From a virus: a stretch of 64,000 nt of DNA. The DNA lies in the IMG/VR virus record IMGVR_UViG_3300025449_000010, positions 8,068-72,067 of that record, one strand, 5' to 3'. The notes under the pieces were generated by a model, which saw only the letters and a list, made by a program, of their open reading frames with translations, was not told the DNA's origin and ran no database searches. The translations under genes were made by a program, and so were the position numbers. This document shows positions 1 to 57,888 of this stretch, one piece after another; the stretch's first letter is position 1; the number at the start of each line of letters is the position of its first letter.

Positions 1-3000
1 ATTTCATATATCTGAGATGAGGTTAATCCCAGAGATACTGCTGCCATTTCAAATGCATAATTTTCATAGTTAACAGGCATATTGTCAAACTGCTGTTGAC
101 TGCTAACTAACTGCATACCAACATGTAATCCGGCTACAAAAGATTCAGCAAACATATCTTGCATGCTGCCCGTACTCAGTGCCCTATCGTTTTCACCTGT
201 TTTAGCGCTGCTAATTATTATCTTATTTAAAGTTTCGATAAATTTAGTCTGAGCGCCATTATCTCCTGCTAATACGGCTGCTAAATCTATACCTCCTCTG
301 GCTTGATTGAATACTTCAAATAGGGGATTAGAAGTAATATTCAGCCTATTTAACTTATTAATACCGCCTCGAAGAAAGGATTCACTGTCTTGTCGGGATG
401 CCACTCTAATATTTCTCAATATCTCTGGAGCATCATCTATTTCCCCATTAATATCTGTAATATTCTCACCGTACCTATGCAATGCTTCAGATATTTTTTT
501 CGCATATTCCTCAGATCTATCCTTATCGTTATCTTCGCCATAGCCAGTGAATGATTCTATACCAAAAGTCAACAGCATTGCGGCTGCAACTCTCTTAGCA
601 CCCAATGCCGATATACCTTCAGTAAGTTCAGCTACGCCTTCTTCATGTCTAAGTAACTGGGCTCCATGTCCAGGCATATAGGCTTTAAAAGAAGTTATGT
701 TAGCTATGCCATGTATTTGATGAGCCTGTATTCCTCTACTACCCTCTACTGCGCTTCTTAGAATACCAAAGCCATCTCTACTCTTACCTAGCCTGCCTTC
801 TCTCTGACTTCTATTGTATTCTGAAGCCCTATATTCAAATCCTTCTACATCAAACATCTGCACAACAGATTTAAATAGTCCAAAGTTGGCTTCCTGACGA
901 TCTCCAGATACCAGCAACGAAGATCTAATAGAAACATTACGAACTACAGTTGCAGAATTAGAACTATCTCCAGATGTTCCTAGTCCTGTTTTGATTTCTA
1001 TAGAATTGTTGTGATAGGATATACTGACCCTAGCTCCCAGCGTAGCTTCAGTAATACTACTAGATCCAGAGACAGCCTTATCCTTAATACCTTCGAGTAG
1101 TTTAATTAATTTATCACTACCGATACTAGAGCTATTTCTATTTTGATCTGTAGATGCAGCCACGGCACTGGCAGCATTGTCAACAATACCTCTAACCTGC
1201 TGTGCACTGAGGGTATTTACTATATTACTTCCCTTCCTGACTAGGTATGCTTCACCTGTATGTGGATCTATAGAGACAATATCGCCAATTCCCAGGTTCA
1301 AGTTAGCCATACTAAAGTCATTCATCAGACCGTAGCTCTTAACCTTCCTATTCTGAATATTGATATTTCCATATCTAGTGGGTACTACTTCTTCCCCGCT
1401 ATCTGTATTAATTTTCCTGCCAAATCCGGCATTAGCATAGTAAGTGGCATCATGCAGGTACCCGCCAAGCCTGAGTAACATAATAGGTTGATCTTCCCAT
1501 CTGTAACCATCCCTATCAGTTATTATCGGAGCACCAGTCATAGATGTACCGTCAAGCTGATCTCTAGTTACCGCCCATGCTCTGAGTAAATGCTTCTTCT
1601 GTTTATCATCAAATAAATCTCTATATTCATCTCCATTCAGTTTTGCCTTCATATTTTCATAAATTTTCAACTGAGAAGGAGCCATAAGGGAACGAATATC
1701 AGAATCAAACTGATAACCCATTGTCATCATATGTGGAAAGTAACCACCAAATAACAGAGCAGCTGTAGCTTCTCTTTCACTCGTTCGCCCATCATCGCCA
1801 AATAATTCAGTTCTAAAGTTTTTTCTAATATTTTCTATATAGTTATCAGCCCTGCTTCTATCTTTGGCATCAAAGCTATTAAGTAGGTTTATATAATGAG
1901 TATATTCCGCACTGAGTGCAACTTTAGATTTAGTGCCCATAGCATTACGTATCCTCTGAGCAAACTGAAACTGCTTATCTTTCTTACCAGTGCGAGTTAT
2001 TAATAATCTATCTTTATTAACTAATGCTGTCTGATTACTTGCTACGACCGAATTATAACTATTAATGGCTAAATTTTTCTGACTCTCTAAAAATTCATTT
2101 CCTAAATTAGCTACACCAGCGATGTCACTGTAATAGTCACTCTCAGTAAATTGAGAGACATCATTACTATCCCTATCTCCATCTATTATGTATCCAATAC
2201 CAATTGCCTCCAATGCTTCCCAATTGTTCAGTAGGGATAACTCCTGCATACGAGATCCAGTAGCAGTGGAATAGTATTCCATAGTAGTGTTAGTAATAGC
2301 AGAAGCCAGAGCATAAAATCCGGTGCCGCCATACTTTGTAGGATCAAATATCATCGGACTCAAGACAGAGGACATACTGTATAGATTGGAAATCCCTACT
2401 TCAGCTGAGCCTCTACTTCTCTCTAAAAAGGATTTATTAGCATCGTTATATTCGCTACGAGAAATAGTATAGTGAGCCTGAGAATTAGTTCCTAATCCTA
2501 ATTCAGCAAATGGAATTGTATTAATTGAAACATGCTGATTAATCATTTCATTAACATCAACTCTATCGGATAGACCATGAGCCATCAGAGCAAATACATC
2601 AGATAGAACATGCCCCTTAGCTCTCTCTTCATTGGTATTTAATCCTAAAATTTTGCCCAGGGTATTACTGAAAGTGTCTAGATTAACAGAACCCCCAACA
2701 GTCTTAGGATTAAACTGATCTATTGTCAGATTAAATAGTTCTATAATACTATCAAGAGACTCTCTTCTGGTGCTTCCATAGTTAGCATTAAGTCCTCTGG
2801 TCAGTTCTACTGTATTTTTGACAACATCATAGAGATCTGTCATATGAGGATTCCTAGAAGCTCTTAATCTCTCTCTAACTGATATGACATTTGTCCTTGC
2901 TTCTTCAAAAGTTTTGTAATAACCCTTCTCAACCCATTTTCTAGCATATTCATCTACATATCTATCCTCATTTACTCTACTAGGTAAGGCACTATTATCC

Positions 3001-6000
3001 AGAGCCTGAGTCATTTTACCGCCATACTCGGTTAACAGTATAAGAGTATTTCTAGCCTCGAGTAGAAATTTTTTAACATCCTGGTTTTTAATTTCTACTG
3101 CATCTTGAGCTTTTTTACTGGGATCTATAAAATCTGCAATCATATCCAGTGCAGCATCATGATCTTTAAAATTCTTATGAACCCAAAATACTCCAGGATT
3201 CCTACTATCTATATTTGTATCTACTATTTCTTCTCTGTTTTTAATAAGATGCATTTCAGATCCAGTCTTCGATGACTTAACCTGAACACCATAGGTTTTA
3301 CCTTGATAATCATAAATTACATCTATCTTGCTGTTGACATCGCCTTTCGTATTTTCATCTAATTTTCTTACATTACTAATAACCTTACTAAATCTAGGAT
3401 CCTGAAGATATTCTACAAACCTATTGACAGCATTATCGCCTCCACTGGAATTGTAATTTGTACCAGCATCTTCAGAGAGATAACTTTTATGACTAGTTAC
3501 CTCAACTGGCTTACCATATGCTCCAGCTAACCCATTATCGAGAACTTTACCTTTGATAGGGGTGTCATCAGCTCCAATTAGATTTTTATGGAATCCAAGA
3601 GTAGCCTCTAATCTATTTTCTAATTTTCCTCTCTCAATAGGACTAGAAGAACCCATACCCAGATTAGAAAGAAAATTAACTGTCAAGTCTCTGATAAACC
3701 TACTTCTCTCAGAGATGTCATCCATACTATTGACATTATTAATGTACTGAGCAGGACTAGCTATTGATTTCCTATAGTTGTATTCCAACACATTACCTAA
3801 AATAGCCATAACACCGGTCTGAGCACTGTTGAGATACAGTTCATTACCCATACCTGATTTAACAGCACCGAAAGGTGTAGCAAAATTACCAGCATCCTTA
3901 CTAGCTATTACGCTACCTCTATAGACTCTACTCTCGTTAGTTAATACTATGGTGCCTTCTAGATTAGTATTTTCAGTGGCATTAGATCTTGCCTCAGTTG
4001 AAGAATTTAAAATTGTGTAACTTAAATTCTTATTGCCTATTTTGACACTAAAGCTATCTGTACCACCAGACTCCAGAGAACTATTAAGACTAAGCTCTAC
4101 TCCACCTAAATTATTAAAAGTGTAACTTGTCCTATCCTTATTCACCTTCATGTTGTAAGGATTTACAGCAGGACTATACCCCTCTGAACCATATTTTCCA
4201 TATTCATGAAATGCTTTTTCATATTCTGCCAGTCTATCCTCCATAGTGGCTCTATGTCCTAATGCCTCAGATACCCTATTGAAGAGTTCTATATCTGTAA
4301 CACTGCTTCTCTTTAACTGTTCAATTAATATATTAAAAGCAGTTTTAACACTCTCGGTATTTCTAATTTGCTTCAATATATCGCCCTTCATATTCTGAGG
4401 CTGATCTATTGCTCCCATGAAACTGCGTGGAACACTTTCTTCCTGAAAAAACCTATCTCTCTGCTCCTGTCCCCAGCCCAGAGCTTCACTGAAACCTCTA
4501 CTTACGAGATTATGTAGGGACTGACTATGTACCTTAGCAACTTCAGGTAACATATCTCGGTTGCCTAAGACATTGTAGCCAGCATTTGCTGGATTAAATC
4601 TAGAAGCATAGTCTGGATTAAGTGAAACCTCATTGAGCTCTAAAGATAGTTTCTGTTTATACTCCATGTAGGCTTCATGGCTATTAAAATCAGATTCAGT
4701 CAATAACTCCATAGAAAAGGGAGTAAAGTTGCTTGAACCTATATTACTGGCAATAGTAACTATGTTATTGTTATTATCATATTCATACAGGGAATATGCC
4801 TTGGCATGTTGTCTGGGAACTGAGGCTTCCTGCACATTTCCACTAGATATAGCCAGCAGAGTTCTTAGGGTATCTCTAACATGTTGTGTAGAATTTAAAC
4901 CCGTTTCTTCGTATTTGGCTATAGAACCCTGACCAAATATATGTTCATACACTTCAAATCCAGCTCGATGAGAGACACCTCCCTCCATAATGCTAGTTAA
5001 TATATCTTCAGCATATGTACTTGTAGAAGCGTATTTCTGTTTAATCATACGCATGTAACCCAGCAAGTTGCCGTTATATTCCTGATTAACCTTACTATCA
5101 GGAGCAGAATTCATCTTACTTATAAGGGGATTGAGTACCTGTTCAGCAAAATTTCGGATATCTACTGCAACAGTTAATCTTCCCTCAATTAAACTGTTAA
5201 GAGTTTTTTCCTGTAACCTGGCGTATCTCTGAGCCAGGTCATTATCTTTCAGGTATCTCTGCATATTCTGATCGTATAGACCAAATTCACTGGTAAAGGC
5301 GCCGCCTTCTCTATCTCTAAGTAGACTAGTGCCCTGTAATAGTAAAGTCTGGTCTAACATCATAATCATGCGGGCAGACTCATTTACACTTTTTTTAAAT
5401 TTATTATTAGCAGAATCTACTCCATAGGTATAGTCAGATAGATAGCTCAAAGCACTATCTAAATGTTCATAGACTCCTCGCATATCGGTTGTTTCTTTAC
5501 CGCTATCAATATCTTTATCAGCAGCAGTGCGTAGATTATTAAAATTGTCTCTAACCTCATCGCGATCAGCTGAGTAACCAGTAAAATCGCTCTTAGCAAT
5601 CTTACGTCTCTGCGTATAGAGAATATTCTCCATTTCCATAGCACTTCTCTTAGTTTCTGCTAACTTAGATAGTCCAGGATCTCCGTTATACTCATCTTCA
5701 ATATCTTCAATAGTTTTATTTATTTCATGTTCAGTACGAAACCTGGCAATAGATACTAGCTCAAAGTTACTGCCAGATAATTCAAAATCCCTACCTACTG
5801 GCTCAGTTAGGTTCATTGACCCCAGTATAGATACGCCACCGATGAGATCGTCATCTGTAAAATTTTCAGAATCCTCCCTGAATGTCTCATCTACCATCAA
5901 CTTAAGGTGAGAACGATCATTAGCAAATTTAGTAGCAATTCTCTCATGAGCATCGTAATGATTAGATCCCCTTCTCACGAGAGCATGCTTCATTGACTGT

Positions 6001-7076
6001 AATCTGCCAGCAGTAGTTAAGTTTCCACCTAAGATGGCTAAATTAGTATTGTTATCATCATCACTATCGCTAGGAGTAGCTAGAGTCACATGAGCGCTAA
6101 AATTTACATCAGTAGCAGTTCTAGCCGTAAGGTAATCGAGTGCAGTCTCATTCTGTAACTGAAATATATCTATATATAGCCTGGTCTTACCTGCTCTTAT
6201 GCCACCAGCCTGACTAGAAATAATATCTGATTTATTACCCATCATCAGCAGGGCAGTGCCAATTCCAGGACGTATTTCAGTAGGTGAAGGCTCAGTTATA
6301 TTAAGAAGTCTGGCTGCAGAATCTAAACCAACAGGATCCATCATGGTGTTGTTTAAATAACTGTTTGCCCTGGGATCTCCAAGTAGCTGCATACCAGTAT
6401 TGATAGATGCAGCATTGAGATCGGCATAGAGCATCTTAGACTGCGCCTGTATAGCTAAATTACCTTCTTCCCAAAGATCTGTATTCCTATTACCAGATAC
6501 TATACCTGCGCCAAGCCCGCCAGAAGTCCATGGATTAGATACTGCAAAAAATAGAGAACGCGCATCTGCATCAGAGCCAAGACCTAATCTACCCGATACA
6601 ACTTTCAAGATGTCATAGGTCTGAGCTGTCGGTTTAGATAGTCTATTGAGATCTGTATCTATAGCTGTATAGGTAATAGCATTATCAATACTCTGTAGAC
6701 CATCTACACTGCTAATTTCACCAGTACTCAGCTTATCTTCGTAATTTTGAGCCGCCTGAATATACAGATCCTGATTAGGATTATTAGAATCAGATGCAGC
6801 TTCTAATAAATCAGCGTAGGTTTCTATGCCATCTCCCGCCTCAGGAAGGTACTTGTTAATCAGTTTGCCAGAGACTGCGCCAAAAAAGAATCTCTTACCG
6901 CCCGTTAAACCCTGTTCAGCTAAAAAAGCATCAGATAAATACTGATTTTTCGCATTAACCCGCAACAGGTTAAATTTCTGCTGCATATTATAGTTCTGAA
7001 CAAGTAGCAACCCATTGTCACTAGATCCATCCCTATAAAAAGCTCCCGGTTGCCAAGTACTATTACTATCTGACAC
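1..7076 (-). CDS. Giant (>2358 aa, 3'-truncated by window edge) multidomain protein: two PLD-superfamily motifs, PD-(D/E)xK-like nuclease motif, possible RNAP beta-like DPBB
   Basis: GTG at 7076 preceded by TAGGTAAACT; translates MSDSNSTWQPGAFYRDG... Every segment I translated in this frame was open, down to ...YAFEMAAVSLGLTSSQIYE at the edge. An internal stop would have produced a long listed ORF and none is listed. Motifs: HLKLMVDE..GSMN (5909-5811), HAK..IGSSNFT (4808-4722), KIDV..YGVQVKS (~3330-3272). Confidence 0.88.
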   Translation of the reverse strand, partial: MSDSNSTWQPGAFYRDGSSDNGLLLVQNYNMQQKFNLLRVNAKNQYLSDAFLAEQGLTGGKRFFFGAVSGKLINKYLPEAGDGIETYADLLEAASDSNNPNQDLYIQAAQNYEDKLSTGEISSVDGLQSIDNAITYTAIDTDLNRLSKPTAQTYDILKVVSGRLGLGSDADARSLFFAVSNPWTSGGLGAGIVSGNRNTDLWEEGNLAIQAQSKMLYADLNAASINTGMQLLGDPRANSYLNNTMMDPVGLDSAARLLNITEPSPTEIRPGIGTALLMMGNKSDIISSQAGGIRAGKTRLYIDIFQLQNETALDYLTARTATDVNFSAHVTLATPSDSDDDNNTNLAILGGNLTTAGRLQSMKHALVRRGSNHYDAHERIATKFANDRSHLKLMVDETFREDSENFTDDDLIGGVSILGSMNLTEPVGRDFELSGSNFELVSIARFRTEHEINKTIEDIEDEYNGDPGLSKLAETKRSAMEMENILYTQRRKIAKSDFTGYSADRDEVRDNFNNLRTAADKDIDSGKETTDMRGVYEHLDSALSYLSDYTYGVDSANNKFKKSVNESARMIMMLDQTLLLQGTSLLRDREGGAFTSEFGLYDQNMQRYLKDNDLAQRYARLQEKTLNSLIEGRLTVAVDIRNFAEQVLNPLISKMNSAPDSKVNQEYNGNLLGYMRMIKQKYASTSTYAEDILTSIMEGGVSHRAGFEVYEHIFGQGSIAKYEETGLNSTQHVRDTLRTLLAISSGNVQEASVPRQHAKAYSLYEYDNNNNIVTIASNIGSSNFTPFSMELLTESDFNSHEAYMEYKQKLSLELNEVSLNPDYASRFNPANAGYNVLGNRDMLPEVAKVHSQSLHNLVSRGFSEALGWGQEQRDRFFQEESVPRSFMGAIDQPQNMKGDILKQIRNTESVKTAFNILIEQLKRSSVTDIELFNRVSEALGHRATMEDRLAEYEKAFHEYGKYGSEGYSPAVNPYNMKVNKDRTSYTFNNLGGVELSLNSSLESGGTDSFSVKIGNKNLSYTILNSSTEARSNATENTNLEGTIVLTNESRVYRGSVIASKDAGNFATPFGAVKSGMGNELYLNSAQTGVMAILGNVLEYNYRKSIASPAQYINNVNSMDDISERSRFIRDLTVNFLSNLGMGSSSPIERGKLENRLEATLGFHKNLIGADDTPIKGKVLDNGLAGAYGKPVEVTSHKSYLSEDAGTNYNSSGGDNAVNRFVEYLQDPRFSKVISNVRKLDENTKGDVNSKIDVIYDYQGKTYGVQVKSSKTGSEMHLIKNREEIVDTNIDSRNPGVFWVHKNFKDHDAALDMIADFIDPSKKAQDAVEIKNQDVKKFLLEARNTLILLTEYGGKMTQALDNSALPSRVNEDRYVDEYARKWVEKGYYKTFEEARTNVISVRERLRASRNPHMTDLYDVVKNTVELTRGLNANYGSTRRESLDSIIELFNLTIDQFNPKTVGGSVNLDTFSNTLGKILGLNTNEERAKGHVLSDVFALMAHGLSDRVDVNEMINQHVSINTIPFAELGLGTNSQAHYTISRSEYNDANKSFLERSRGSAEVGISNLYSMSSVLSPMIFDPTKYGGTGFYALASAITNTTMEYYSTATGSRMQELSLLNNWEALEAIGIGYIIDGDRDSNDVSQFTESDYYSDIAGVANLGNEFLESQKNLAINSYNSVVASNQTALVNKDRLLITRTGKKDKQFQFAQRIRNAMGTKSKVALSAEYTHYINLLNSFDAKDRSRADNYIENIRKNFRTELFGDDGRTSEREATAALLFGGYFPHMMTMGYQFDSDIRSLMAPSQLKIYENMKAKLNGDEYRDLFDDKQKKHLLRAWAVTRDQLDGTSMTGAPIITDRDGYRWEDQPIMLLRLGGYLHDATYYANAGFGRKINTDSGEEVVPTRYGNINIQNRKVKSYGLMNDFSMANLNLGIGDIVSIDPHTGEAYLVRKGSNIVNTLSAQQVRGIVDNAASAVAASTDQNRNSSSIGSDKLIKLLEGIKDKAVSGSSSITEATLGARVSISYHNNSIEIKTGLGTSGDSSNSATVVRNVSIRSSLLVSGDRQEANFGLFKSVVQMFDVEGFEYRASEYNRSQREGRLGKSRDGFGILRSAVEGSRGIQAHQIHGIANITSFKAYMPGHGAQLLRHEEGVAELTEGISALGAKRVAAAMLLTFGIESFTGYGEDNDKDRSEEYAKKISEALHRYGENITDINGEIDDAPEILRNIRVASRQDSESFLRGGINKLNRLNITSNPLFEVFNQARGGIDLAAVLAGDNGAQTKFIETLNKIIISSAKTGENDRALSTGSMQDMFAESFVAGLHVGMQLVSSQQQFDNMPVNYENYAFEMAAVSLGLTSSQIYE

Positions 7077-7213: not shown

Positions 7214-7585
7214 ATGTTTACATGCGTCCTACCCTCTGGCAATACAGTAGTGATGAAATCACTCACCTTCAGAGATCGCCAGCAAGCTGTTCGCATCATG
7301 AAGACAGCTAAGGATGAAGGTTATCTACTCGAAGAACTAATGGCGGCCATGGCTATTATCTCCATCAACGGTCAGGATCTGCCACAGGATCTAGTATCCG
7401 ATCCTGTAACTCGAATGGACAACTGGTCACTGCCAGATGCCCAATACTACCTGGAGTTCTTCATGAGTATCAGCTCTATCGATGAGAAAACACGTAAAGG
7501 AGCTGAAGAACAGGCGAAAAAGCTCATGGCAGGAGCTGGGGCACCCCCGGCGCCTACATCCAAGGTAAAAGTTCAGCCTGCCTGA
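7214..7585 (+). CDS. Tail assembly chaperone (gpG-like)
   Basis: 123 aa, starts with 'LPSG..V.MK.LT.RD' followed by helical segments, the pattern typical of myophage TACs; carries a slippery site and overlaps an open -1 frame. Confidence 0.65.
   Translation: MFTCVLPSGNTVVMKSLTFRDRQQAVRIMKTAKDEGYLLEELMAAMAIISINGQDLPQDLVSDPVTRMDNWSLPDAQYYLEFFMSISSIDEKTRKGAEEQAKKLMAGAGAPPAPTSKVKVQPA
7516..7554 (+). other. Putative -1 programmed ribosomal frameshift signal
   Basis: G AAA AAG at 7516-7522, then GC hairpin GCTGGGG-cac-CCCCGGC. The -1 frame is open from 7507 (after TGA 7504-7506) into ORF 7618..8085. Confidence 0.65.
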
Positions 7586-7617: not shown

Positions 7618-8085
7618 ATGGGTGGATTCCTCCACCCTGACTCCATACTCAGCCGAAGAACTCACCTGCCCTGTCCCTATGATCCCACCACGCTGATAGA
7701 TGGACGTGCCGCTATCATCTCCGAGCGCTTTAATGAGTATCTACCTCCAGACTGGTCTCTCATCCAGCTCAAGATTAACTACGTCAAGGCAGTAGCCAGC
7801 CATATGCGTAAGAATAATCTGCCTGCCACCTCTGGAGGAAGTCCCAATATATCTGGATGGCTGCATATATGCACAGTCCTGGGCGGCGGTGTCAACTGGC
7901 ATGACTGGCAAGACCTGAATGAATTCGAGCAGGAAGCCCTGATCCAGGAGGTCAATGAACATAACCGCCAGCAGGAGAAGAGACACCAGCAGGAGACTGA
8001 GAACATGAAGAAAGAACTTCAGAGTATCCAGTCTGAGAACAGTCCATCCATGTTCAACAATATCAAACCACCCTCATTCCACTAA
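7618..8085 (+). CDS. gpT-like C-terminal part of tail chaperone (probably made as a G-T fusion)
   Basis: Lies in the -1 frame relative to 7214; 'W.DW..L...E...L' followed by a coiled-coil-like tail resembles gpT regions. Confidence 0.6.
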   Translation: MGGFLHPDSILSRRTHLPCPYDPTTLIDGRAAIISERFNEYLPPDWSLIQLKINYVKAVASHMRKNNLPATSGGSPNISGWLHICTVLGGGVNWHDWQDLNEFEQEALIQEVNEHNRQQEKRHQQETENMKKELQSIQSENSPSMFNNIKPPSFH

Positions 8086-8088
8086 ATC

Positions 8089-9597
8089 ATGGACGAATCT
8101 CCCCAAGAGCAGAACAAGGTCTCGCACCTAGTTACCCAACCACCTGTAGTAACCTCACCTACCTATAGGAGGTTCCCACCTCGGTTAGGTCAATTCGGAC
8201 GCTCCATGTCCTATACCTCTATTGGAGAGAGTTTCAGAGCCACCACCAAGCCCTCCCAGCAACAGCTGGCTGTCTGGGATGAGGCACGCCAGAGAGAACC
8301 CACCATACAGGCTGGGTTCAATATCATCACCAGGAACCTGCTGGCCACCATCGGAGACTATGTGCATCCCAACAGGGACATACAGAACTTCGTCAGGGCC
8401 AATATAGCCCAGGGACTGCATAGATGGATAGAGGCGGCACTGATATCCAGCATGTGGAGTGGGTTTTCAGTCGGCGAGGTGATCTGGCAGTACCGCGATG
8501 GGCCCAACGGCAAGCAGGTCTGGATCAATGAGATCATGCCGTACCATCCCATCCAGATCTTCTTCATCGTCAATGACTTCGGACAACTCACCCATGGCGA
8601 GAGGGTCACCTACTCCAGCTACAAGTCTGGTATCTGGGTACCCCGTCCTGCCAGCCAGTATACCCGGAAGATCAACACAGACACACATGGCATCCATGCC
8701 AGACTGCCACGCAGCAAGGCCTTCTACACCAAGATAGGACATGACCAGGGTAACCCCTACGGTCACAGTCCCCTCTTCCCTATCATGCGTTACCATCTCT
8801 TCAAGGAGGTCTTCATGGATCTCATGAGTAATGCCCTGGATAGGTATTCCATGCCCCTACTCTACGTCAAGGTACCCAACCAGACCACGCAGGAGGCCAC
8901 CACTGATGCTGATGGCAGCACCCGCATGCTGACACTGCAGGAGGTAGTGGCACGTGAGATACAGGAGATAGAGCATGACAGCTTCCTGGTATTCACCCAG
9001 ACCGATGCCCGCAATAATCCCATCGAGATAGGTGCACTGACCACAGGTAATAACTACGGGGAGGCATTCAACCATGCCATCGACCTCTGCGATAAGAACA
9101 TGATGCTGGGTCTCAATATACCCAATCTCCTGTTCCATGAGCAGGGCAGACAGCTGGGTGGGGGCGGCGCCAGTGCCATCCAGTGGGAGGTATTCAACCA
9201 CTTCATCGGCTCGCTATATGATGTGACTGTGGGTGCATTCATAGACCAGGTGGTACGTCAGCTGATAGCCTACAACTTCGATGTCAACACCGTACCTGAT
9301 GCTGGTGAACTCGGCTACATGCAGCGTAAGCCCATCAGACCCGTGGATCAGAAGACCACTGCTGATGTCTATTCAATACTGACCCAGATAGGTGCTGTCA
9401 ATACCACCAATGAGACCGACTTCGCTCATATCAGGGCAGTCATGGGTCTACCAGACCGTGATCACCAGGGCTACGATGAGCCTCACCTGCCAGGCATGAC
9501 TCCAGCGGTAGGGGCGGCGCCGTCCCAGACCCGCACCAGGAAGAAGGCAACCACCAGGGATGGGCAGGAGCCAACCGACAAGTCAGTCCAGAAATAG
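8089..9597 (+). CDS. Portal protein (Mu gp29/DUF935-like)
   Basis: 502 aa; 'WSGFSVGEVIW' and 'GNPYGHSPL...FK..M...LDRYSMP' patterns; upstream of protease and capsid genes. Confidence 0.85.
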   Translation: MDESPQEQNKVSHLVTQPPVVTSPTYRRFPPRLGQFGRSMSYTSIGESFRATTKPSQQQLAVWDEARQREPTIQAGFNIITRNLLATIGDYVHPNRDIQNFVRANIAQGLHRWIEAALISSMWSGFSVGEVIWQYRDGPNGKQVWINEIMPYHPIQIFFIVNDFGQLTHGERVTYSSYKSGIWVPRPASQYTRKINTDTHGIHARLPRSKAFYTKIGHDQGNPYGHSPLFPIMRYHLFKEVFMDLMSNALDRYSMPLLYVKVPNQTTQEATTDADGSTRMLTLQEVVAREIQEIEHDSFLVFTQTDARNNPIEIGALTTGNNYGEAFNHAIDLCDKNMMLGLNIPNLLFHEQGRQLGGGGASAIQWEVFNHFIGSLYDVTVGAFIDQVVRQLIAYNFDVNTVPDAGELGYMQRKPIRPVDQKTTADVYSILTQIGAVNTTNETDFAHIRAVMGLPDRDHQGYDEPHLPGMTPAVGAAPSQTRTRKKATTRDGQEPTDKSVQK

Positions 9598-19301: not shown

Positions 19302-21965
19302 ATGGCTACAATTCCTTCAGTAAATTTTATAGAGCAGGCTTCGTCTACCCAACCAATTCAAACTGGTGTTCGTAACAGAGTTCTAGTAATTGGTGAGTTT
19401 GACAGAGGCCCCCTTGGTCCTACTTATATTGGCGGCGCTTCTGACTTTGCTGTCCGATATGGAGCTGACCCCACTAACAACGGTTCTCTAGGTGTACAGG
19501 CAATACTAGATCAAGGAGCAGTCAATATAGCTGCCCTACGTGTAATAGGTAATGAAAGACGTGCCTATGGTCAATTTAACATTACAGGAGTTGCCACCAG
19601 TGCTCCAGGCACAAACTATGATAGTCAGCAATTAAGTCTATTAGCCAGCACTATTGGCAATGTAGTTCCTAACTTAAACACAGTACTTCGTACTGATATT
19701 GAAGCCTCAGGACGTTATACAGGGTCTACCAGTAGCGTCTATAACTTCTACGTAGCCACTAACTTCAACTCCACAGCAGTGACTGGCTATGTTCTCAAGG
19801 CTGCAGTTGGATCTACTCCAGCAGTAACTGTCAATATTCCTGCCAATAGCTGGCTGTTGACCTATGTAAATAATGATCCAGACGCAGGTCAACTCAGCTC
19901 CAGTGATTTTGTAGGTGCAACTAACTATATCCTAGTTACAGCTCCCAGTAATCTGGCCTCAGCTCCACTGAGTGTAGCCACCACCGTATATGGAGTTAAT
20001 GCCACCTATCCTACACCGACTTCTGGAGGTATTGATGGGCTTGGCTTAACGTTGGGATTCAGTATTCAGACTTCTCTAGATCTAGTTCAAGGTCAGATAT
20101 TCAGCGTAACTGCATCTAATTTTAATTCACTATTCACCCCTATTAAAGTAGTTCCTAACACTACTAATGAGGTTCTTTTTAACCTTATTCAGTCTAATTG
20201 GCAGAATACTGGACCAATTGGAAATATATCTCTAGCATCCAGTAGTCATAGCAATGGTTACATATATGCAAGTAACAGATATCCAGGACAATATGGTAAC
20301 AACCTGAGCTACAGTCTTCAATTTGCAGTTCCAGATGGGACAGTTAAAGCCTCAGTTACATCTACCTATACAGCAGCAACTGGTAACACTGCAGCTAGCT
20401 ATACATTGACATTGGCTAATACATCTCTAACTCAATATATCCGACCAGGAGCTACTGTCTCAGATGGCGGCACTAATATTAACATTAATGCTCCGACAGT
20501 TACCTCAATTAACTCTGCAACTGGAGTAATTACACTCTCTGGAGGATTGACTGCCTCCATAAGCACAGCCTTCGCAGTTACCTTCACCAACACCAGCGGA
20601 CTTAGCATTGCACAGGTTAATGCTAATAATAACGGTTTTTCAACTTTTACCAGCGGTATTGACGGACCTAAATATGCAACTAGAGACCTATACAATATTC
20701 AGGGTATAAAACTTATAACCTTGATAGCAGTATCTCCTGGTATATGGGCTAATGACCTAAGCATATCCATTACTAACGCCTCTAATCCAGGACAATTTAT
20801 TATTAACATTGTTGATAACAATGCTAATAATTTTAATCCACCACTAAATGCAGAATCATTTACAGTTAATATCAGTAATTTTAGTCAAACTGATGGTAGC
20901 TTAATTGATTTAAATGGTTCTAATTACATCAGAGGATTCTTTGTTCCCTATTTAACTAACGGAACTAATTATACTGCATCTCTGATATACGACTGGCCTC
21001 AGAGATTATTACCGCCAATAGCTTCAATCAGAGATACTCTAGATTTAGCTAATCCTGTAAACTATGGAAAAACTATTCTTACCAATTTTAATTTACAAAA
21101 CGGTAATAATGGTCCTATTATTCAGAACAGCGATTACTACGCGGCCATAGATCAGTCCTATAAAATACCTGTTCATATCATAGTAACTCCAGGCGTTACA
21201 GATATAGGGGTACAGTCGGCATTGATTGCGCATTGTGAAGCTAGCACTGAATTAGAGCAGCTACGTGTATGTATATTACAGGCTCCTAGATTTTTAAAAC
21301 CTGAGCAAGCCAAGGCGATTACCTCTTCATTATCCTCAGCTCGCGCTGTAATGGTAGTAGGTTGGGGTACCTATAGAGGTTCTGCTCTAGATTACGGTAA
21401 CTACAATTTACCTTTAGATTCTGTCTTAGCAGGTAGATTAAGTGCGTTGCCCTTTTACGTTAATACAGCAGCTAGAAGATCTTCAGGTCCAATTGGCTCT
21501 ATATATGCCTGCGATACGGATCCATATGCGACCTATAGCCAACTACAGGTCTACGCAGCAGCTAATTTAGAAGTAGTAGCAAGAGATCCCAGTACTCAAG
21601 GTTATTATTTCTTCACAGGAGCATCGCTCTCTCCTAGTCCAGATTTAAACCACATAAGTTATCGAAGAGCCTATGACATAATCAGAATGGATTTGTATGA
21701 TAACCTGCAAACATACAAATCAGAACCTCTGACATCTACTCTGGTAACTTTGGTAACTGGAGCAATCAATGCCTATATGAACAATAAGCTTAATTCTGGA
21801 CAAATAGCTTATTTCAATAATAGTAGTACTAGCGTCAACGCAGGTAATACTCCAAATACATTGGCAGTTTCATTTAGTTTTGCACCGTTAGGTTCTGCTG
21901 ATTCTATTACGGTGTATATACAACGTGATGCCAGTGGTCAGTTTATAAATTCATCTTCAAGATAG
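19302..21965 (+). CDS. Contractile tail sheath protein
   Basis: N-terminal P.V...E....I......IGEFDRGP.GP; SPG.WAN; C-terminal ISYRR..D.I and 'VSFSFAP...ADSI.V'; large internal insertions. Confidence 0.92.
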   Translation: MATIPSVNFIEQASSTQPIQTGVRNRVLVIGEFDRGPLGPTYIGGASDFAVRYGADPTNNGSLGVQAILDQGAVNIAALRVIGNERRAYGQFNITGVATSAPGTNYDSQQLSLLASTIGNVVPNLNTVLRTDIEASGRYTGSTSSVYNFYVATNFNSTAVTGYVLKAAVGSTPAVTVNIPANSWLLTYVNNDPDAGQLSSSDFVGATNYILVTAPSNLASAPLSVATTVYGVNATYPTPTSGGIDGLGLTLGFSIQTSLDLVQGQIFSVTASNFNSLFTPIKVVPNTTNEVLFNLIQSNWQNTGPIGNISLASSSHSNGYIYASNRYPGQYGNNLSYSLQFAVPDGTVKASVTSTYTAATGNTAASYTLTLANTSLTQYIRPGATVSDGGTNININAPTVTSINSATGVITLSGGLTASISTAFAVTFTNTSGLSIAQVNANNNGFSTFTSGIDGPKYATRDLYNIQGIKLITLIAVSPGIWANDLSISITNASNPGQFIINIVDNNANNFNPPLNAESFTVNISNFSQTDGSLIDLNGSNYIRGFFVPYLTNGTNYTASLIYDWPQRLLPPIASIRDTLDLANPVNYGKTILTNFNLQNGNNGPIIQNSDYYAAIDQSYKIPVHIIVTPGVTDIGVQSALIAHCEASTELEQLRVCILQAPRFLKPEQAKAITSSLSSARAVMVVGWGTYRGSALDYGNYNLPLDSVLAGRLSALPFYVNTAARRSSGPIGSIYACDTDPYATYSQLQVYAAANLEVVARDPSTQGYYFFTGASLSPSPDLNHISYRRAYDIIRMDLYDNLQTYKSEPLTSTLVTLVTGAINAYMNNKLNSGQIAYFNNSSTSVNAGNTPNTLAVSFSFAPLGSADSITVYIQRDASGQFINSSSR

Positions 21966-23069: not shown

Positions 23070-25118
23070 ATGAAAATATATACTCCAGAAGCACCAATAC
23101 CGGCTGCAGTAGTTACCCTGGCATCCGGTAAGGATCAGAGGCAATGTGCTCAGCCTATTATATTTAGTACATTACCTGGTGCCGCCCCCTATAGCAATAC
23201 AGCACCATGGATGATTAAATCAGTAGATGTCACCCTACTGAGAGACTGGAACTGCGGTCAGTTCAGTCTACTGCTGGCAATTCCCATGGGAGAAAAACTG
23301 GGTGCTGTACCCAAGATGCCCGATGTCAGTCAGTGGCGAGGACCCAAGAACAGCAAGGATGGTTATGTATATCTATCTCCAGAGGATGAAATACGGATAT
23401 ACATGGGATATGTGCCACCAGGTACTGCGGAAATTACATATGACATGCTAGACTCAGTTCCCTTCACAGTGAAGGCCCATGATACGTATACCAGCGATCA
23501 AGTAGGCAAGACCCAGTCTCCTGCTATAAACTCTTCTCCAGATAAACCCCTGGCACCTGTCTTCTGGGGTTTCATAGATAGAATAGACTACATGATGGAT
23601 GAGAAGGGTATTCAGTGTTTCATACAGGGTCGTGATAGAGTACGCGCCCTTATGGACACTAAAATACTTAATATAGATGCCTTCACAGGTTCTAGTGACA
23701 TAGCTGAAATAGGTGGAAGTAAGACAGGAAGACGTGAACAGATATTATTAGATGTAGCCAATGCTGCGGTAGGGAGTGTCTTAACTGGCGAAATAACTCT
23801 AAATGATCTTAAAAATACTCCCGGCTGCTGGCGTTATATAGTCAGGGGATATGAATTTCTGGGTTATCCATACGATAGCAGCACGGATAAGGCAAAAAAT
23901 AGCAATAAATATCAAAAGACCAATATCAACGATAGTTCAGATAGTGCAGCTCAGACAAGTGTTAGTCGCAATTTAATACCTGTTGAGGGTCCAGCACTGT
24001 GGTCTCTGACAGCATCAATGAGTCAAATACCAGATGCAGCCTCCGCCACTGAGACATCTAGTATTAAATTTCATAGATGGGTGCAACGTCCACCTATTCA
24101 GAAGGGTGTAGGAGGCGTATATGAGGTATTCAATAAGATTCCACTGGAGATTATTCACTATCTAGCCAATACTGAGGACAGTGTTACAGACTTCTACTGC
24201 AGCCATGTCAATGGGGAATTTGTCTTTGCTCCATCATTCCTAGACATCAGTGGATTGCAAGATGAAGAGCGCAATTACCGTACCTACTACTTCTTAACCT
24301 CTCCTACTGGAAATTCTCCCTCCGCTGCTCAGATGATTAAAAAACTGAGAGCCAGCACTACCAGTCTGGGTATGTATAATCGCTTCGCTGTCTTAGCATC
24401 TGGAAACAGTCAGGCAAGTGGCAGTACTGTCAATGATCTTAAAGCCATACTAGATGCCTCACCTAATCTACTGAAGGGACGAGATGTTAATCCTCCCTGC
24501 CGCACTGTTGTAATACCTGAAGATAATCTAGATCAAGCGCAATCAGTAACTGCCAATGCCATGAGCATGGCACTCAGCTATGCAGAAGTAATGGCCAGGG
24601 ATTCATCTGGAGTTGCCTTCACCATAATGGGAGATCCAACTTTCTTCCCAGGGGAAGCCGTAATTATATACAATACAGGTCTACATGACGATGGAGTAGA
24701 GGTAGCAGATATATCTAAAACTACTCTGGGTATAGATTACTCTAAGTCAGTAATAAATTTTACACAGAACATCAACAGTCTCCTACCCCAGGGTACAGGT
24801 GAAGGTAATGGGGATAAGAATGTTACCAATCCCTTCCTGGTGTCAGCACTGAGTAATAAATTGGGTAAGGGAAAGTTGGATACTACTAATCCGTACAGTA
24901 AAGCTATAACCTGGGCACAGGGTGCTATCACATCTCCTGACATGAAAGATACCTCAGGTAAATCAACTGGTGTAGCAGGTCCACTGGCTGTAGACAGAAA
25001 CACGACTAATTCGAGTTGTCCACCTGTATATAAAATACGCTCTATCCGCCATGTATTAACTACAGCTGGATCTGATGCTGGATTTACAACTAGCCTATTG
25101 GGTACTACAGAGCTATGA
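23070..25118 (+). CDS. Baseplate hub protein (T4 gp27/Mu gp44/P2 gpD-like)
   Basis: VFWGFIDRI..IQGRD; GDP...PGE.V.I; Y.I.SIRH...GFTT.L. Confidence 0.78.
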   Translation: MKIYTPEAPIPAAVVTLASGKDQRQCAQPIIFSTLPGAAPYSNTAPWMIKSVDVTLLRDWNCGQFSLLLAIPMGEKLGAVPKMPDVSQWRGPKNSKDGYVYLSPEDEIRIYMGYVPPGTAEITYDMLDSVPFTVKAHDTYTSDQVGKTQSPAINSSPDKPLAPVFWGFIDRIDYMMDEKGIQCFIQGRDRVRALMDTKILNIDAFTGSSDIAEIGGSKTGRREQILLDVANAAVGSVLTGEITLNDLKNTPGCWRYIVRGYEFLGYPYDSSTDKAKNSNKYQKTNINDSSDSAAQTSVSRNLIPVEGPALWSLTASMSQIPDAASATETSSIKFHRWVQRPPIQKGVGGVYEVFNKIPLEIIHYLANTEDSVTDFYCSHVNGEFVFAPSFLDISGLQDEERNYRTYYFLTSPTGNSPSAAQMIKKLRASTTSLGMYNRFAVLASGNSQASGSTVNDLKAILDASPNLLKGRDVNPPCRTVVIPEDNLDQAQSVTANAMSMALSYAEVMARDSSGVAFTIMGDPTFFPGEAVIIYNTGLHDDGVEVADISKTTLGIDYSKSVINFTQNINSLLPQGTGEGNGDKNVTNPFLVSALSNKLGKGKLDTTNPYSKAITWAQGAITSPDMKDTSGKSTGVAGPLAVDRNTTNSSCPPVYKIRSIRHVLTTAGSDAGFTTSLLGTTEL

Positions 25119-27034: not shown

Positions 27035-27627
27035 TGCCTCTTAATTCTGTATACAATCCCATGCACTGGGGCAATTCCACTCCCAGAAAATGTCAGCCGG
27101 AGATAGTGGTATTACATGAAACCAATGTGTCCCTGGATGCTGCCCTGCAGTATCTGCGTAGACCTATCAATACCGGCTACCACTACATAGTTGCAGAATC
27201 CGGTGCCGCCCACCTACTCTGTCCAATAGATCGTCTCATATACGCCGCAACACCCTCTCAACATTCCAGATACGGCAGACACACAGACCTGGTGGCTGTG
27301 CATATAGCACTGGAGACCAGACGGGAGCGTGGCTACAGTGCCGCCCAATATCAGACCCTGTCAGACCTCCTCAATGCCCTGCAGCTCCCATCTGTATTCC
27401 ACAGAGATATACATACTGGCATAGAGCCCCGGCTAGACCCCAGAGACTTTGACTACTCCCTACTGCCAACCAGTGACAATACTGACACAGGAATATACCT
27501 GACTCCTGAGCTAGATGCCATCCTCTATTCAGTCACAGGCACGCATGACCTGAGCTATCTAGACAGTCCAGATATTCCAGTTAAACTAATCCCAGTCAGA
27601 GAATATGCCCTTAACCGATCTAGGTAA
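27034..27627 (+). CDS. Amidase_2 (AmpD/PGRP-like) N-acetylmuramoyl-L-alanine amidase
   Basis: IVVLHET, GYHYIV..G, H..I...R.DP. Confidence 0.82.
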   Translation: MPLNSVYNPMHWGNSTPRKCQPEIVVLHETNVSLDAALQYLRRPINTGYHYIVAESGAAHLLCPIDRLIYAATPSQHSRYGRHTDLVAVHIALETRRERGYSAAQYQTLSDLLNALQLPSVFHRDIHTGIEPRLDPRDFDYSLLPTSDNTDTGIYLTPELDAILYSVTGTHDLSYLDSPDIPVKLIPVREYALNRSR

Positions 27628-28993
27628 TGCCGTCATCAATAAGGCAGCTCAGCTCCCCTCCACCTGCCCTAACGGCGGACAGGGTCAGATGAAATTACCT
27701 GCAGACCAGGTAGAACAGGTCAGGTCTAACATCAATGCCCTGGCTGATAAGTATGGATGCTCAGCAGATGGACTGACTGCCATCATCGTCAATGAATGTA
27801 GTTTCGACTACAGGGAATGGGGTGGGAGCGGGGGCGTCTACTTCGGTTATTTCCAGTGGTGTTCATCCAACAGCGGTGACTGTGCAGGTGAATGGGTCAG
27901 GACTGGACTAGCCCGACTGGGACAGAGTCAGCAGATAAATAGTATAGCCACAGTCAACGGTGCCGCCCAGACTGCCCCAGGAGGCCCATGTGACAACTAC
28001 CTGAGCTACAATATAGCGCAGTGTAAGGGAATCAATACCGCAGATATTGCCAGCATATACCTATTAATTCTCTCACCAGCCTACTGTAACTACGGCGATA
28101 CCACGCCACTGCCAATAGCGGGACAGCAGTCACCTAACCTATACGACAGTAATGGGCATATAACCAAGGTTCAGATCAGAGCTGCCCTGGAGAAGGGTGC
28201 TCAGGACTTCACTAAAAGCACAGCATCTCTGGGAACTGGGTCTGGAGTGAATAACGGTGCAGGTACCTACTCCAGTGGGAACAGTGCTGGCTCTAGCTCT
28301 ATTCCAGTTATATACTTCAATCCCACCCCAGTAGATCCCTACTACCCCACCAAGGTAATCTGGCAGGGAAGATCCGTCAACAAGATAGTCAGGGCAGCAG
28401 GTGGAGGTAATCTGACCTATCCCGGCGCCGCCCCTCCATCCAGTCCAACTGCAGGACAGGGTAACTCCACATCACTGGGTAAGAATATACCTGCAATGCC
28501 AGCAGGCTTCGTACCCACTCCTGCAACCAAGGGCAGCTTCGGAGATCCCCTACCCCAGCCCTACATAGTGACCAGTGAGTTTGGCGTGAACCGGGGAACC
28601 CATATACATGCAGGATTAGACCTGGTACCATCATCAAGAAATATATTCGAGACACCGGTACTGAGCGCCACATCAGGTGTAGTAATCAGTGCAGGCTATG
28701 AAGCGGACTACACTAATCCCAGAGGAACAACAAGATGCGATGCCATGTATGCTGGAAAGGGCTTCGGTAGCTTAATTACTGTATACACCTACAATACAGC
28801 TCCAGGTGCTCCTGCCTATATACTGTATGGACATGTTCTCAGATGGGATGTGAAGGCTGGAGATATAGTAACTAAGGGACAACCAATAGGACTCGTAGGC
28901 TGTGAGGGCGATTCCACTGGAGCTCATCTACACTTCCAGGTCAATGATTCCAACAATACCCCCATCAATCCCCATAACTACCTGTCGACATGA
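27605..28993 (+). CDS. Lysozyme-like (SLT-type) domain + M23 metallopeptidase
   Basis: AII.NE.SF...GYFQ at the N-terminus; HAGLD (HxxxD), YGH and STGAHLHF (HxH) at the C-terminus. Confidence 0.82.
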   Translation: MPLTDLGNAVINKAAQLPSTCPNGGQGQMKLPADQVEQVRSNINALADKYGCSADGLTAIIVNECSFDYREWGGSGGVYFGYFQWCSSNSGDCAGEWVRTGLARLGQSQQINSIATVNGAAQTAPGGPCDNYLSYNIAQCKGINTADIASIYLLILSPAYCNYGDTTPLPIAGQQSPNLYDSNGHITKVQIRAALEKGAQDFTKSTASLGTGSGVNNGAGTYSSGNSAGSSSIPVIYFNPTPVDPYYPTKVIWQGRSVNKIVRAAGGGNLTYPGAAPPSSPTAGQGNSTSLGKNIPAMPAGFVPTPATKGSFGDPLPQPYIVTSEFGVNRGTHIHAGLDLVPSSRNIFETPVLSATSGVVISAGYEADYTNPRGTTRCDAMYAGKGFGSLITVYTYNTAPGAPAYILYGHVLRWDVKAGDIVTKGQPIGLVGCEGDSTGAHLHFQVNDSNNTPINPHNYLST

Positions 28994-56508: not shown

Positions 56509-57888
56509 ATGTCCGGCACCCCAGGTACCCCGATTGATTGGCAAGAACCCTACCTGAATCCGCTATATCAGGATGGCGGTAGCTACGGTGATCCAGTGTA
56601 TGTAGACACCACTGAACCTGGCGTAGACCCAGCCCTGCTACAGGGACGCGAGAGTGGCATATACATAGATGACATAGCTGACGTAGACTACATTCAGATC
56701 TATATACCTCAGAACGACAGGCACGTGGGGCGAGCTATCCATCAGGAACTCCATGTGACCGGACAGAACTATGTCTATGTCCAGGTGCCGCCCACTGTGG
56801 GCTATGGTGTTAACTCCTGCTACATAGTCGAATACTATAAATACATAGCTCCAGTGCCGCTCAACTACACCATGTCTGGCACCAACTCAGTCACCATCAA
56901 CGGTACCCCCATCACCAGACAACTGAGTCGCTCAATACAGCTGCCAGGTAGATCCAGAAAGGAGCTACTCTACAGTCAGTACTGGTTGGTACCCACCTTC
57001 AAGGGCTATAGGTATCTACGACACAGGGACACCATACTGGAACAACGTCTGCCAGACCGTAGACGCAATATAGAGCTGATCATGAATGCCAGCACCTTCA
57101 CCCAGGTCAATGGATCAGATCCCCTGACCAGCGATATTCAGCTCATAGTCAGTGTCATGGCAACTCCAATCACAGCCAGTGCCACCCCAATTATCAGCAA
57201 CGGCATCATCACTGGACTCAGTATAGTGGGAGGTGGCTCTAACTACACCACTGCACCTACCATCACCATCACCAGTGCCACAGGTACGGGAGCCCGTGCA
57301 ACTGCTATTATCACCAGGGGTATAGTAACTGGCTATACAGGACTCGTGGGCGGCACCGGGTACCTGGCAGGCAATACGACTGTCAGCATAGCGCCGCCCA
57401 CCTCCCAGGCAACTGCCACAGTCACAGTCACAGGCGGTGTCATCACAGCCATCACAGTGACCAATGGAGGTGCAGGATACTCCAGTGCCTATCCTCCCAA
57501 CATCAGTTTCACCAGCAGCACCGGAACAGGAGCCAGTGCCACCCTGACTGTGGCTAATGGCAGGATAACAGGCTACACCAACCTGATAGGTGGATACGGC
57601 TATGCAACCGTAACAGCCACCATAGACCCCCCAGGTGTCAATACATACTATGCCCAGACAACAGACTGGGAACGCACTGCAGACGGCATACAGTGGCTGA
57701 CCACGGCGCCGCCCACTCAATATTTGATCATGTACCGTCCATGCTACTACAAGGAAGAAGTAACCTACATTCCTAACTCAACTGAGTTGACAGTAGTCAA
57801 CCACAGACAGCTAATGCCAGAACAACAGCTCTTCAACGGGTTACTCTATAATCCAGCCCTGACATATCCATATCCCTGGATTGGTTAA
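56509..57888 (+). CDS. Virion structural protein with (ATA..GG.IT.I.V..GG.GY..P) repeats
   Basis: About four beta repeats of the type seen in large myophage baseplate/neck proteins (57170-57630). Confidence 0.65.
   Translation: MSGTPGTPIDWQEPYLNPLYQDGGSYGDPVYVDTTEPGVDPALLQGRESGIYIDDIADVDYIQIYIPQNDRHVGRAIHQELHVTGQNYVYVQVPPTVGYGVNSCYIVEYYKYIAPVPLNYTMSGTNSVTINGTPITRQLSRSIQLPGRSRKELLYSQYWLVPTFKGYRYLRHRDTILEQRLPDRRRNIELIMNASTFTQVNGSDPLTSDIQLIVSVMATPITASATPIISNGIITGLSIVGGGSNYTTAPTITITSATGTGARATAIITRGIVTGYTGLVGGTGYLAGNTTVSIAPPTSQATATVTVTGGVITAITVTNGGAGYSSAYPPNISFTSSTGTGASATLTVANGRITGYTNLIGGYGYATVTATIDPPGVNTYYAQTTDWERTADGIQWLTTAPPTQYLIMYRPCYYKEEVTYIPNSTELTVVNHRQLMPEQQLFNGLLYNPALTYPYPWIG

Follow-up and report, generated by a model that had tools for sequence, protein, structure and literature searches.

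A giant cyanophage protein probably joining a phospholipase D domain to a divergent RNA polymerase core

The virion RNA polymerase of coliphage N4 is a T7-like single-subunit enzyme and not a two-barrel one. Polyvalent proteins of phages and conjugative elements, the subject of work by Iyer and co-workers in 2017, are reportedly very large and multi-domain and thought to be delivered with DNA. The N4 enzyme (∼3500 residues) is a giant that is packed in the capsid and ejected to start transcription, and the accessible parts of the sources do not mention a phospholipase D (PLD) domain in it (PMC13434306, PMC13492108). According to the available part of its description, gp66 of the crAss-like phage phi14:2 (PDB 6VR4) is a large single-chain two-barrel virion polymerase that was first spotted by a DFDxD motif, with ∼1600 residues without recognisable homologue and ∼8% identity to other polymerases (10.1101/2020.03.07.982082). 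Gp96 of Thermus phage P23-45 is, in the accessible text, a 5002-residue virion protein in which a divergent two-barrel polymerase is fused to a tail-traversing part (10.1101/2022.12.01.518664). Here we analyse a 64,000-nucleotide stretch of viral DNA (the window; bases 8068-72067 of the 72,067-base contig of IMG/VR record IMGVR_UViG_3300025449_000010, CheckV completeness estimate 45%) and the giant protein encoded across its left edge. This protein is a member of an undescribed, recurrent cyanophage family that probably injects a PLD-polymerase fusion.

The giant gene enters the window as a minus-strand open reading frame (ORF) at 3..7076, with 2358 stop-free codons, and runs past the window start. 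The full ORF on the contig (L001:1962-15143, minus strand) has 4393 codons and a GTG start, and the protein collection contains an identical 4393-residue protein (P0003), recorded once on a 114-kb contig. It is a real, very long gene; the single ORF proposed in a first-pass annotation, made from the sequence letters alone, has no in-frame stop. That annotation had described two PLD domains and a restriction-endonuclease-like domain, and the strings it quoted are all present, with coordinates correct within a few bases. The features of the first part of the protein are as follows, all on the minus strand.

3..7076, minus strand: window part of the giant gene, residues 1-2358; the remainder lies upstream of the window, contig L001:1962-8069
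6285..7076, minus strand: N-terminal region, residues 1-264, conserved only patchily across the family
4638..6284, minus strand: putative bilobed two-HKD PLD-superfamily domain, residues ∼265-813 (homology span, Pfam on relatives, AlphaFold2 model, VIA-align)
5805..5915, minus strand: HKD motif 1, R388-S-H390-L-K392-LMVDE, 16-residue hairpin insertion, ILG419-S-M-N422-LT
5757..5768, minus strand: N437-F-E439-L, the conserved N-x-E after HKD motif 1; N437 and E439 are invariant in seven giants
5202..5744, minus strand: inter-lobe insert, mostly helical, residues ∼445-625, of varying length among relatives
4722..4814, minus strand: HKD motif 2, R755-Q-H757-A-K759-AYSLYEYDNNNNIVTIASNIG-S-S782-N783-FT
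6194-6150, minus strand: AGKTRLYIDIFQLQN, quoted in the first-pass annotation
5915-5886, minus strand: RSHLKLMVDE, likewise quoted
5828-5805, minus strand: ILGSMNLT, likewise quoted
5768-5757, minus strand: NFEL, likewise quoted
4814-4794, minus strand: RQHAKAY, likewise quoted
4742-4722, minus strand: IGSSNFT, likewise quoted

The protein matches H.K.{10,35}GS.N at residues 390 and 757, two occurrences where 0.058 would be expected, and only 0.18% of 5000 shuffles hold two or more. Both half-sites deviate from the HKD consensus: Site 1 has Glu397 for the expected Asp and a 16-residue hairpin insertion, and site 2 has no Asp. The noncanonical Asp had been remarked upon earlier, and the remark is correct, although of minor weight: HKD motif 1 reads HLKLMVDE, with Glu at a position where most relatives in a 13-sequence alignment (A1) carry Asp or Glu. 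The insertion, which sits in the hairpin between HLKLMVDE and ILGSMN, sets the protein apart from the other members of A1.

A phmmer search with residues 270-1290 against 1.84 billion representatives returned 12 proteins at E ≤ 1e-3. Apart from one close relative, these were giants of 3511-3771 residues and fragments, aligning to residues ∼291-810 only; one of them (P0006) had an E-value of 5.8e-18 over query positions 25-541, corresponding to residues 294-810. The relatives have canonical HKD motifs such as HQKILVTDKFGIIGSLN, with a second HxK...GSSN ∼270-370 residues further on. Among the 13 members of A1, Pfam recognised PLDc_2 in eight (best 4.2e-9) and PLDc in six, and NCBIfam recognised DpdK in five (best 1.3e-4) and nuclease NucT in two (0.056). 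When A1 was combined with eight IMG/VR loci and Ma-LMM01, HxK was kept in 19/19 sequences covering HKD motif 1 and in 19/19 covering HKD motif 2, and the same sequences also keep S/T-x-N at each site and, after motif 1, N-x-E. Searched against the PDB, a profile of the PLD alignment picked up just PLD4 and a poxvirus nicking-joining enzyme, in both cases by the HKD motif alone (E 1.2-2.1). In the protein atlas, PLDc_2 scored 0.88-0.91, which is under the recognition level and is a lead only.

An AlphaFold2 (AF2) model of residues 270-830, built with A1, was of moderate quality, with a predicted local distance difference test score (pLDDT) of 62.1 and a predicted template-modelling score (pTM) of 0.50. 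Aligning this model to 48,161 chains with VIA-align gave a top eight that all belong to the PLD superfamily: NucT (6.6), FAM83A (6.2), vaccinia F13 (6.0), FAM83B (6.0), PPK1 (5.8), Pseudomonas aeruginosa PLD (5.5), a second PPK1 (5.5), and Zucchini (5.4). The alignments to F13, PPK1, and phosphatidylserine synthase cover both lobes (model residues 1-523), with 208-257 residues aligned. In BFVD, the sole significant match was the first 1187 residues of gp080 of phage Ma-LMM01, labelled "PLD phosphodiesterase domain-containing protein" (E 2e-16). The sequence and the model lead us to conclude that residues ∼265-813 probably make up a single two-HKD PLD domain of two lobes separated by a helical insert. 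The assignment to the PLD superfamily as a catalytic module is borne out by the motif statistics, the homologues that hit PLDc_2, and the structural neighbours. Both HxK...GSxN stretches that had been taken for two domains are real, but the alignments to single-domain two-HKD enzymes identify them as the two lobes of one. A third, "decayed" PLD stretch that had been suggested upstream (FAVSNPWTSGGL...GNRN, 6548-6483) has no HxK, lies in a region that is unaligned among family members, and is not retained.

A close relative of 4408 residues (P0004) carries an Asn/Lys-rich insertion of ∼100 residues (∼560-670) in the inter-lobe helical linker. It is absent from the window's protein, and the linker therefore tolerates large changes in length.

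Since the HKD residues are invariant among relatives that share only ∼20%-30% identity, the domain is probably active. We lean slightly toward a nuclease rather than a membrane phospholipase, because DpdK, NucT, and Zucchini, the closest named matches among profiles and structures, work on nucleic acids. A role as a membrane phospholipase is rather doubtful.

We were able to place the protein in a family, its architecture having gone unrecognised in the first-pass annotation. Collinear sequence homology identifies it as a divergent member of the Ma-LMM01 gp080 family (PHROG 31006, function unknown). Gp080 aligns in five collinear blocks (full E 1.3e-14) and has both HKD motifs and NLGDFDGD. 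Against other giants there are six to seven collinear blocks; in the distant giants these fall at residues ∼294-810, 1617-1894, 2113-2427, 2725-2812, 3043-3131, 3432-3602, and 3761-3939. The link to cultured phages surfaced only via an intermediate relative: tblastn of P0010 matched nine Microcystis phage records, whereas megablast (7.2 kb) and tblastn (C-terminal half) of the window's own gene found no match in the phage collection, and word-indexed homologue searches with the window's protein returned close relatives only. Likewise, relative P0012 matches phrog_31006 end to end (E 0), and the window's protein is too diverged to match it.

Scanning IMG/VR with two conserved peptides yielded eight loci, of which seven have a single ORF of 3565-4790 residues and all eight have D[FY]DGD. 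The earlier proposal of a giant multi-part protein, to be followed up by a search for homologous giant ORFs, held up: The protein has 4393 residues, and giants were recovered by phmmer, tblastn, and the IMG/VR scan. In one of the loci (L005:9356-20464), the PLD part (1471 residues) and the DFDGD part (2231 residues) are parted by one in-frame stop at 13769-13771, which may reflect a naturally split gene, read-through, or an error of sequencing; the database protein P0010 (1467 residues) shares its HKD motif strings with the PLD part. In 9/9 loci (the eight plus that of Ma-LMM01), the giant gene is next to the head module; it is accompanied by a small protein gene and a portal gene in 9/9 and by a capsid gene in 7/9, where the fetched flank reaches, and is divergently oriented, as in the window, in 8/9. 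In public records, the family appears only as "hypothetical protein," as PHROG 31006, or under an automatic PLD label, and a PLD-polymerase pairing is undescribed in the literature searched.

The most extensive conserved blocks fall between residues 1617 and 3939, an invariant DxDGD loop among them. Seven giants with ∼20% identity to the window's protein share G2058, R2060, K2069, K2131, H2137, and G2138, as well as R3001, P3004, G3006, L3069, G3070, D3071, D3073, G3074, and D3075. The last five of these fall in NLGDYDGD (residues 3068-3075, outside the window), which has the DxDGD form of the metal-binding loop of two-barrel polymerases. The available text of the gp66 study describes DFDGD as a universal feature of the barrel in which the catalytic Mg is bound (10.1101/2020.03.07.982082). 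The candidate counterparts in the Escherichia coli polymerase subunits are listed below, first for the window and then as strings of the family.

861..905, minus strand: GDRQEANFGLFKSVV, residues 2058-2072, candidate beta-subunit-like barrel motif (by motif resemblance only; compare E. coli beta GDKMAGRHGNKGV)
651..707, minus strand: IANITSFKAYMPGHGAQLL, residues 2124-2142, candidate counterpart of beta NPLGVPSRMNIGQILE (by motif resemblance only)
Family string GDR..(E)..GLFK(G/S)V: candidate counterpart of E. coli beta GDKMAGRHGNKGV
Family string NPSNLKSY...HG: candidate counterpart of E. coli beta NPLGVPSRMNIGQ
Family string (F)RSPP.G: candidate counterpart of E. coli beta-prime NRAPTLH
Family string L.L.NP.S....NLGDFDGD: candidate counterpart of E. 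coli beta-prime IQLHPLVCAAYNADFDGD

GDR2060...FK2069SV and NxxxFK2131...HG resemble GDK...NKGV and NPLGVPSRMN of E. coli beta, and the stretch of beta-prime used for comparison reads LLNRAPTLH...NADFDGD. The four family strings follow the order of beta then beta-prime, as in E. coli. On these motifs, the core is likely to be a very divergent two-barrel RNA polymerase.

We then considered how the protein might reach the host. It has no cysteine in 4393 residues, compared with ∼25 expected from the average of 0.57% in 16 other ORFs of the window. Avoidance extends to the family, with no cysteine in 18 of 21 sequences and one in the other three. A single strongly hydrophobic, transmembrane-like segment lies near the C-terminus (residues 4264-4282). 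From the cysteine avoidance, the linkage to the head module, and the hydrophobic segment taken together, we infer packaging with the head, followed by passage of the unfolded chain through tail and periplasm.

Overall, we consider it somewhat likely that a PLD nuclease and a two-barrel RNA polymerase are delivered by the virion within one protein of the gp080 family. The giant protein would be made late, packed in the head, and ejected with the DNA, passing the tail unfolded and acting at the start of infection. The active site, common to the two PLD lobes, would be built from one His-x-Lys ... (G)S-x-N half-site of each and would hydrolyse a phosphodiester. Behind the PLD domain, the proposed layout is a variable region (with a nuclease-like motif in this clade), a conserved core whose beta- and then beta-prime-like motifs end in the invariant GD(F/Y)DGD loop, and a hydrophobic C-terminal end, and the core would transcribe the first phage genes. 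Because host transcripts persist during Ma-LMM01 infection according to the accessible part of the transcription study (PMC5780444), wholesale destruction of host nucleic acid is unlikely, and local nicking or end-processing would be the likelier role of the PLD domain. A bolder and quite unlikely version is an ejected "cut-and-transcribe" machine, in which the PLD domain nicks or resects the entering phage DNA or host nucleic acid and so makes a single-stranded or nicked template for a promoter-poor virion polymerase, with a PD-(D/E)xK module adding a second cut in this clade. If it were true, phages described as reliant on host sigma-70 would start their own programme.

A number of results weigh against a delivered PLD-polymerase protein. 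On the PLD side, the window's own protein matches no Pfam, PHROG, NCBIfam, or PADLOC model; phmmer of both protein halves against PDB sequences gave nothing at E ≤ 10; 171 of the 561 residues of the AF2 model are below pLDDT 50; and Foldseek of the model against the PDB gave nothing at E ≤ 1e-3, the best hit being PPK1 at 0.025 and the weak top rows including PPK1, PLD2, Tdp1, and MITD1. On the polymerase side, hmmsearch with a profile of the seven giants found no polymerase in the PDB, Pfam found no RNA polymerase family in the seven giants, and PF00623 had no match to the contig in six frames. With hhalign, the probability was under 1% against E. coli beta and beta-prime. Against a block of 81 beta-prime sequences, only nine DFDGD columns aligned (probability 16%), and the beta-like strings (R2060/K2069 and K2131) were left unaligned; all 81 references are Proteobacteria at 83%-99% identity, which makes this hhalign test weak. 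A hidden Markov model of the block reached beta-prime residues 460-468 with a score of -1.7, equalled by 22 of 500 shuffles. Such profile tests are weak in general because known members share only ∼8% identity. Finally, the available part of the Ma-LMM01 study describes early, middle, and late genes with sigma-70-like promoters and does not report a phage polymerase, and the persistence of host transcripts that it records speaks against a PLD domain that shreds host nucleic acid (PMC5780444).

The restriction-endonuclease-like domain of the first-pass annotation bears on one alternative. Its motif is present, in the positions below.

3273..3443, minus strand: PD-(D/E)xK-like motif stretch, residues 1212-1268, GGDNAVNRFVEYL ... 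KIDVIYDYQGKTYGVQVKS, this clade only
3443-3405, minus strand: GGDNAVNRFVEYL, quoted in the first-pass annotation
3329-3273, minus strand: KIDVIYDYQGKTYGVQVKS, likewise quoted

The order of elements (a helix with an acidic residue, a hydrophobic strand ending in D, a strand with QxK) is like that of a PD-(D/E)xK core, and IDVIYDYQGKTYGVQVK (residues 1251-1267) fits the short D...(D/E/Q)xK motif. The D...[EQ]xK pattern with its hydrophobic context occurs in 1.1% of 3000 shuffles, a pattern that was composed after viewing the string. The domain itself did not find support: Pfam and PADLOC gave no match to the stretch at E ≤ 10, no standalone homologue was found among proteins of 91-291 residues, and hhalign against E. 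coli Mrr gave a probability of 0.06%. The AF2 model of the segment had a pLDDT of 39.9, with 234 of 271 residues below 50, and VIA-align matched only its helical residues 156-271, not the motif region. The only atlas lead was RE_MjaI (rank 22, score 0.84). In this clade, the region that holds the stretch (815-1617) exceeds that of P0008, for instance, by ∼300 residues; the stretch is identical in close relatives P0004 and P0005 and has no counterpart in 17 of 19 other family sequences. Judged on its sequence, this clade-specific motif could mark a true nuclease fold, although we think this less likely than not.

An injected attack effector, in which two separate PLD enzymes and a PD-(D/E)xK nuclease break down the DNA or RNA of the host or reshape membranes, with the rest as a carrier, would account for the intact and invariant HKD residues, and the cysteine avoidance and head-module linkage suit an injected protein. 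It could also draw on the D...QxK string in its fitting hydrophobic context, kept in two close relatives, and on the faint lead to RE_MjaI. We nonetheless find it unlikely. The HKD stretches align to the two lobes of single-domain enzymes such as F13, PPK1, and phosphatidylserine synthase; for the nuclease-like string there is no profile match, standalone homologue, or usable model, and most of the family lacks it; host transcripts persist in Ma-LMM01 infection, as far as the accessible text goes (PMC5780444); and the largest conserved blocks, with the DxDGD loop, lie elsewhere, at 1617-3939. Of the injected multi-enzyme effector that was first proposed, delivery is plausible (zero cysteine, head-gene linkage in 9/9), whereas the largest conserved part carries RNA-polymerase-type motifs and not effector domains.

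A tape measure or an envelope-spanning part of an ejectosome, with the PLD domain as a phospholipase that opens host membranes and DFDGD as a metal site unrelated to transcription, strikes us as improbable. The gene is read from the other strand, lies ∼12 kb from the sheath gene and upstream of the portal gene, and in 9/9 loci neighbours portal and capsid genes instead of sitting between those for the tail tube and the baseplate. DpdK, NucT, and Zucchini, the closest PLD profiles and structures that carry a name, have nucleic acid as their substrate, and the four beta- and beta-prime-like motifs stand in canonical order with DxDGD invariant. These points have to be set against the failure of all polymerase profile tests, the C-terminal hydrophobic segment of a cysteine-free protein, the lack of any tape measure recognised by PHROGs among the tail genes, and the giant tape measure of P23-45, which by the available text carries enzyme domains (10.1101/2022.12.01.518664). 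Very unlikely, in our view, is an unpackaged protein made after infection as an intracellular replication, transcription, or repair enzyme; most Ma-LMM01 genes are assigned to the middle class in the available text (PMC5780444), but near-total cysteine avoidance over 21 sequences and linkage to the head module are hard to square with a purely cytoplasmic enzyme.

The neighbours of the giant gene on the plus strand, and further genes of the window, are as follows.

7214-7585, plus strand: 123-residue protein, phrog_32670 (function unknown), with a homologue in the same place in 9/9 related loci
7618-8085, plus strand: 155-residue protein, with a homologue in the same place in 5/9 related loci
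8089-9597, plus strand: Mu-type portal
13319-14650, plus strand: capsid protein E homologue
19302-21965, plus strand: tail sheath
23070-25118: 682-residue tail-region protein
27605-28993, plus strand: 462-residue baseplate-region protein
54066-56507, plus strand: large terminase
57888-63998, plus strand: second giant ORF

The 682-residue protein has ∼30% identity to proteins in 10 records, those of Microcoleus phage My-WqHQDG and of eight Microcystis phage records from the Ma-LMM01 group, and because of these matches we regard the window as part of a Ma-LMM01-like, cyanophage-type myovirus. The 462-residue protein has a C-terminal metallo-endopeptidase or endolysin-type domain (19 PHROG families, best 4.3e-16) and is probably a tail-associated cell-wall hydrolase. 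The large terminase gene is outside the head module, ∼45 kb from the portal gene. Giant gene and head-tail genes differ in composition (38.4% vs. 47.6% G+C, the latter over 8089-46091), and low G+C recurs elsewhere in the window, in the second giant gene (33%) and in further islands at ∼46-52 kb.

The second giant ORF encodes at least 2037 residues, has no cysteine, runs past the window end, and lies directly 3′ of the large terminase gene and a gene for a 459-residue structural-like protein. It matched no Pfam or PHROG family. We rejected it as a paralogue of the first giant gene, as it has no HKD, no DxDGD, and no phmmer link. An open ORF of 427 residues at the contig start (L001:3-1286, plus strand) may or may not continue it on a circular genome; a direct join of the two is out of frame.

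How does the protein compare with enzymes and giants already described? The best structural neighbours of the PLD model are NucT (6ehi), Zucchini/PLD6 (4gel and 4ggj), vaccinia F13 (9fhk), the C-terminal domains of PPK1 (1xdo), P. aeruginosa PLD (7v53), and SauUSI (7clg). The solved PLD enzymes and the window's protein share the HxK...GSxN...NxE signature, present twice, and a beta-hairpin after each HxK, which in our protein is predicted. In contrast to polyvalent proteins, which are mosaic, the gp080 family has a fixed and conserved domain order, and the one match to phage polyvalent proteins and phospholipase D in the accessible full-text literature concerns BREX. Within the full-text library searched, which covers few subscription journals, no paper pairs the gp080 family with a polymerase or discusses its PLD domain.

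Our candidate core, like gp66, was spotted by its aspartate motif. Gp66 differs in having 2180 residues and DFDID, in a polymerase activity that has been demonstrated, and in that no PLD domain is reported in the accessible part of its description (10.1101/2020.03.07.982082); the seven-giant profile searched against the PDB gave no sequence or profile link between gp66 and the window's family. P23-45 gp96 offers the same proposed combination of a divergent polymerase with a tail-traversing part, with the polymerase N-terminal, a gene that is the tape measure, and no mention of a phospholipase or nuclease in the available text (10.1101/2022.12.01.518664). In the window, the PLD domain leads and the giant gene stands beside head genes.

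The sober result is that the PLD call was right, as one domain with two lobes; that the restriction-nuclease call is unproven; and that the architecture is already in public phage genomes as an unnamed family. The available part of the transcription study presents Ma-LMM01-type phages, which infect bloom-forming cyanobacteria, as dependent on host-type promoters throughout and lacking their own polymerase (PMC5780444). If an injected PLD nuclease and polymerase do reside in a cysteine-free protein of ∼3500-4800 residues, this host-promoter-only picture changes, and virion polymerases, represented by N4, crAss gp66, and P23-45 gp96, would gain in this family a fourth lineage, very divergent and the first to be fused to a PLD enzyme. 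As Ma-LMM01 is a cultured phage, this reading is open to direct testing. Its gp080 (YP_851094.1; 3562 residues, "hypothetical protein") is the closest known counterpart: Like the window's protein, it has both HKD motifs and a DxDGD-type loop and is near cysteine-free, and its gene holds the same divergent place beside the genes for small protein, portal, and capsid. With 831 residues more than gp080, the window's protein has DYDGD instead of DFDGD, the 16-residue hairpin insertion in HKD motif 1, and an extra region holding the PD-(D/E)xK-like string. What is particular to this member of the family is accordingly its length and divergence, its DYDGD, its HKD motif 1 insertion, its extra region of ∼300 residues with the nuclease-like string, and its low G+C.

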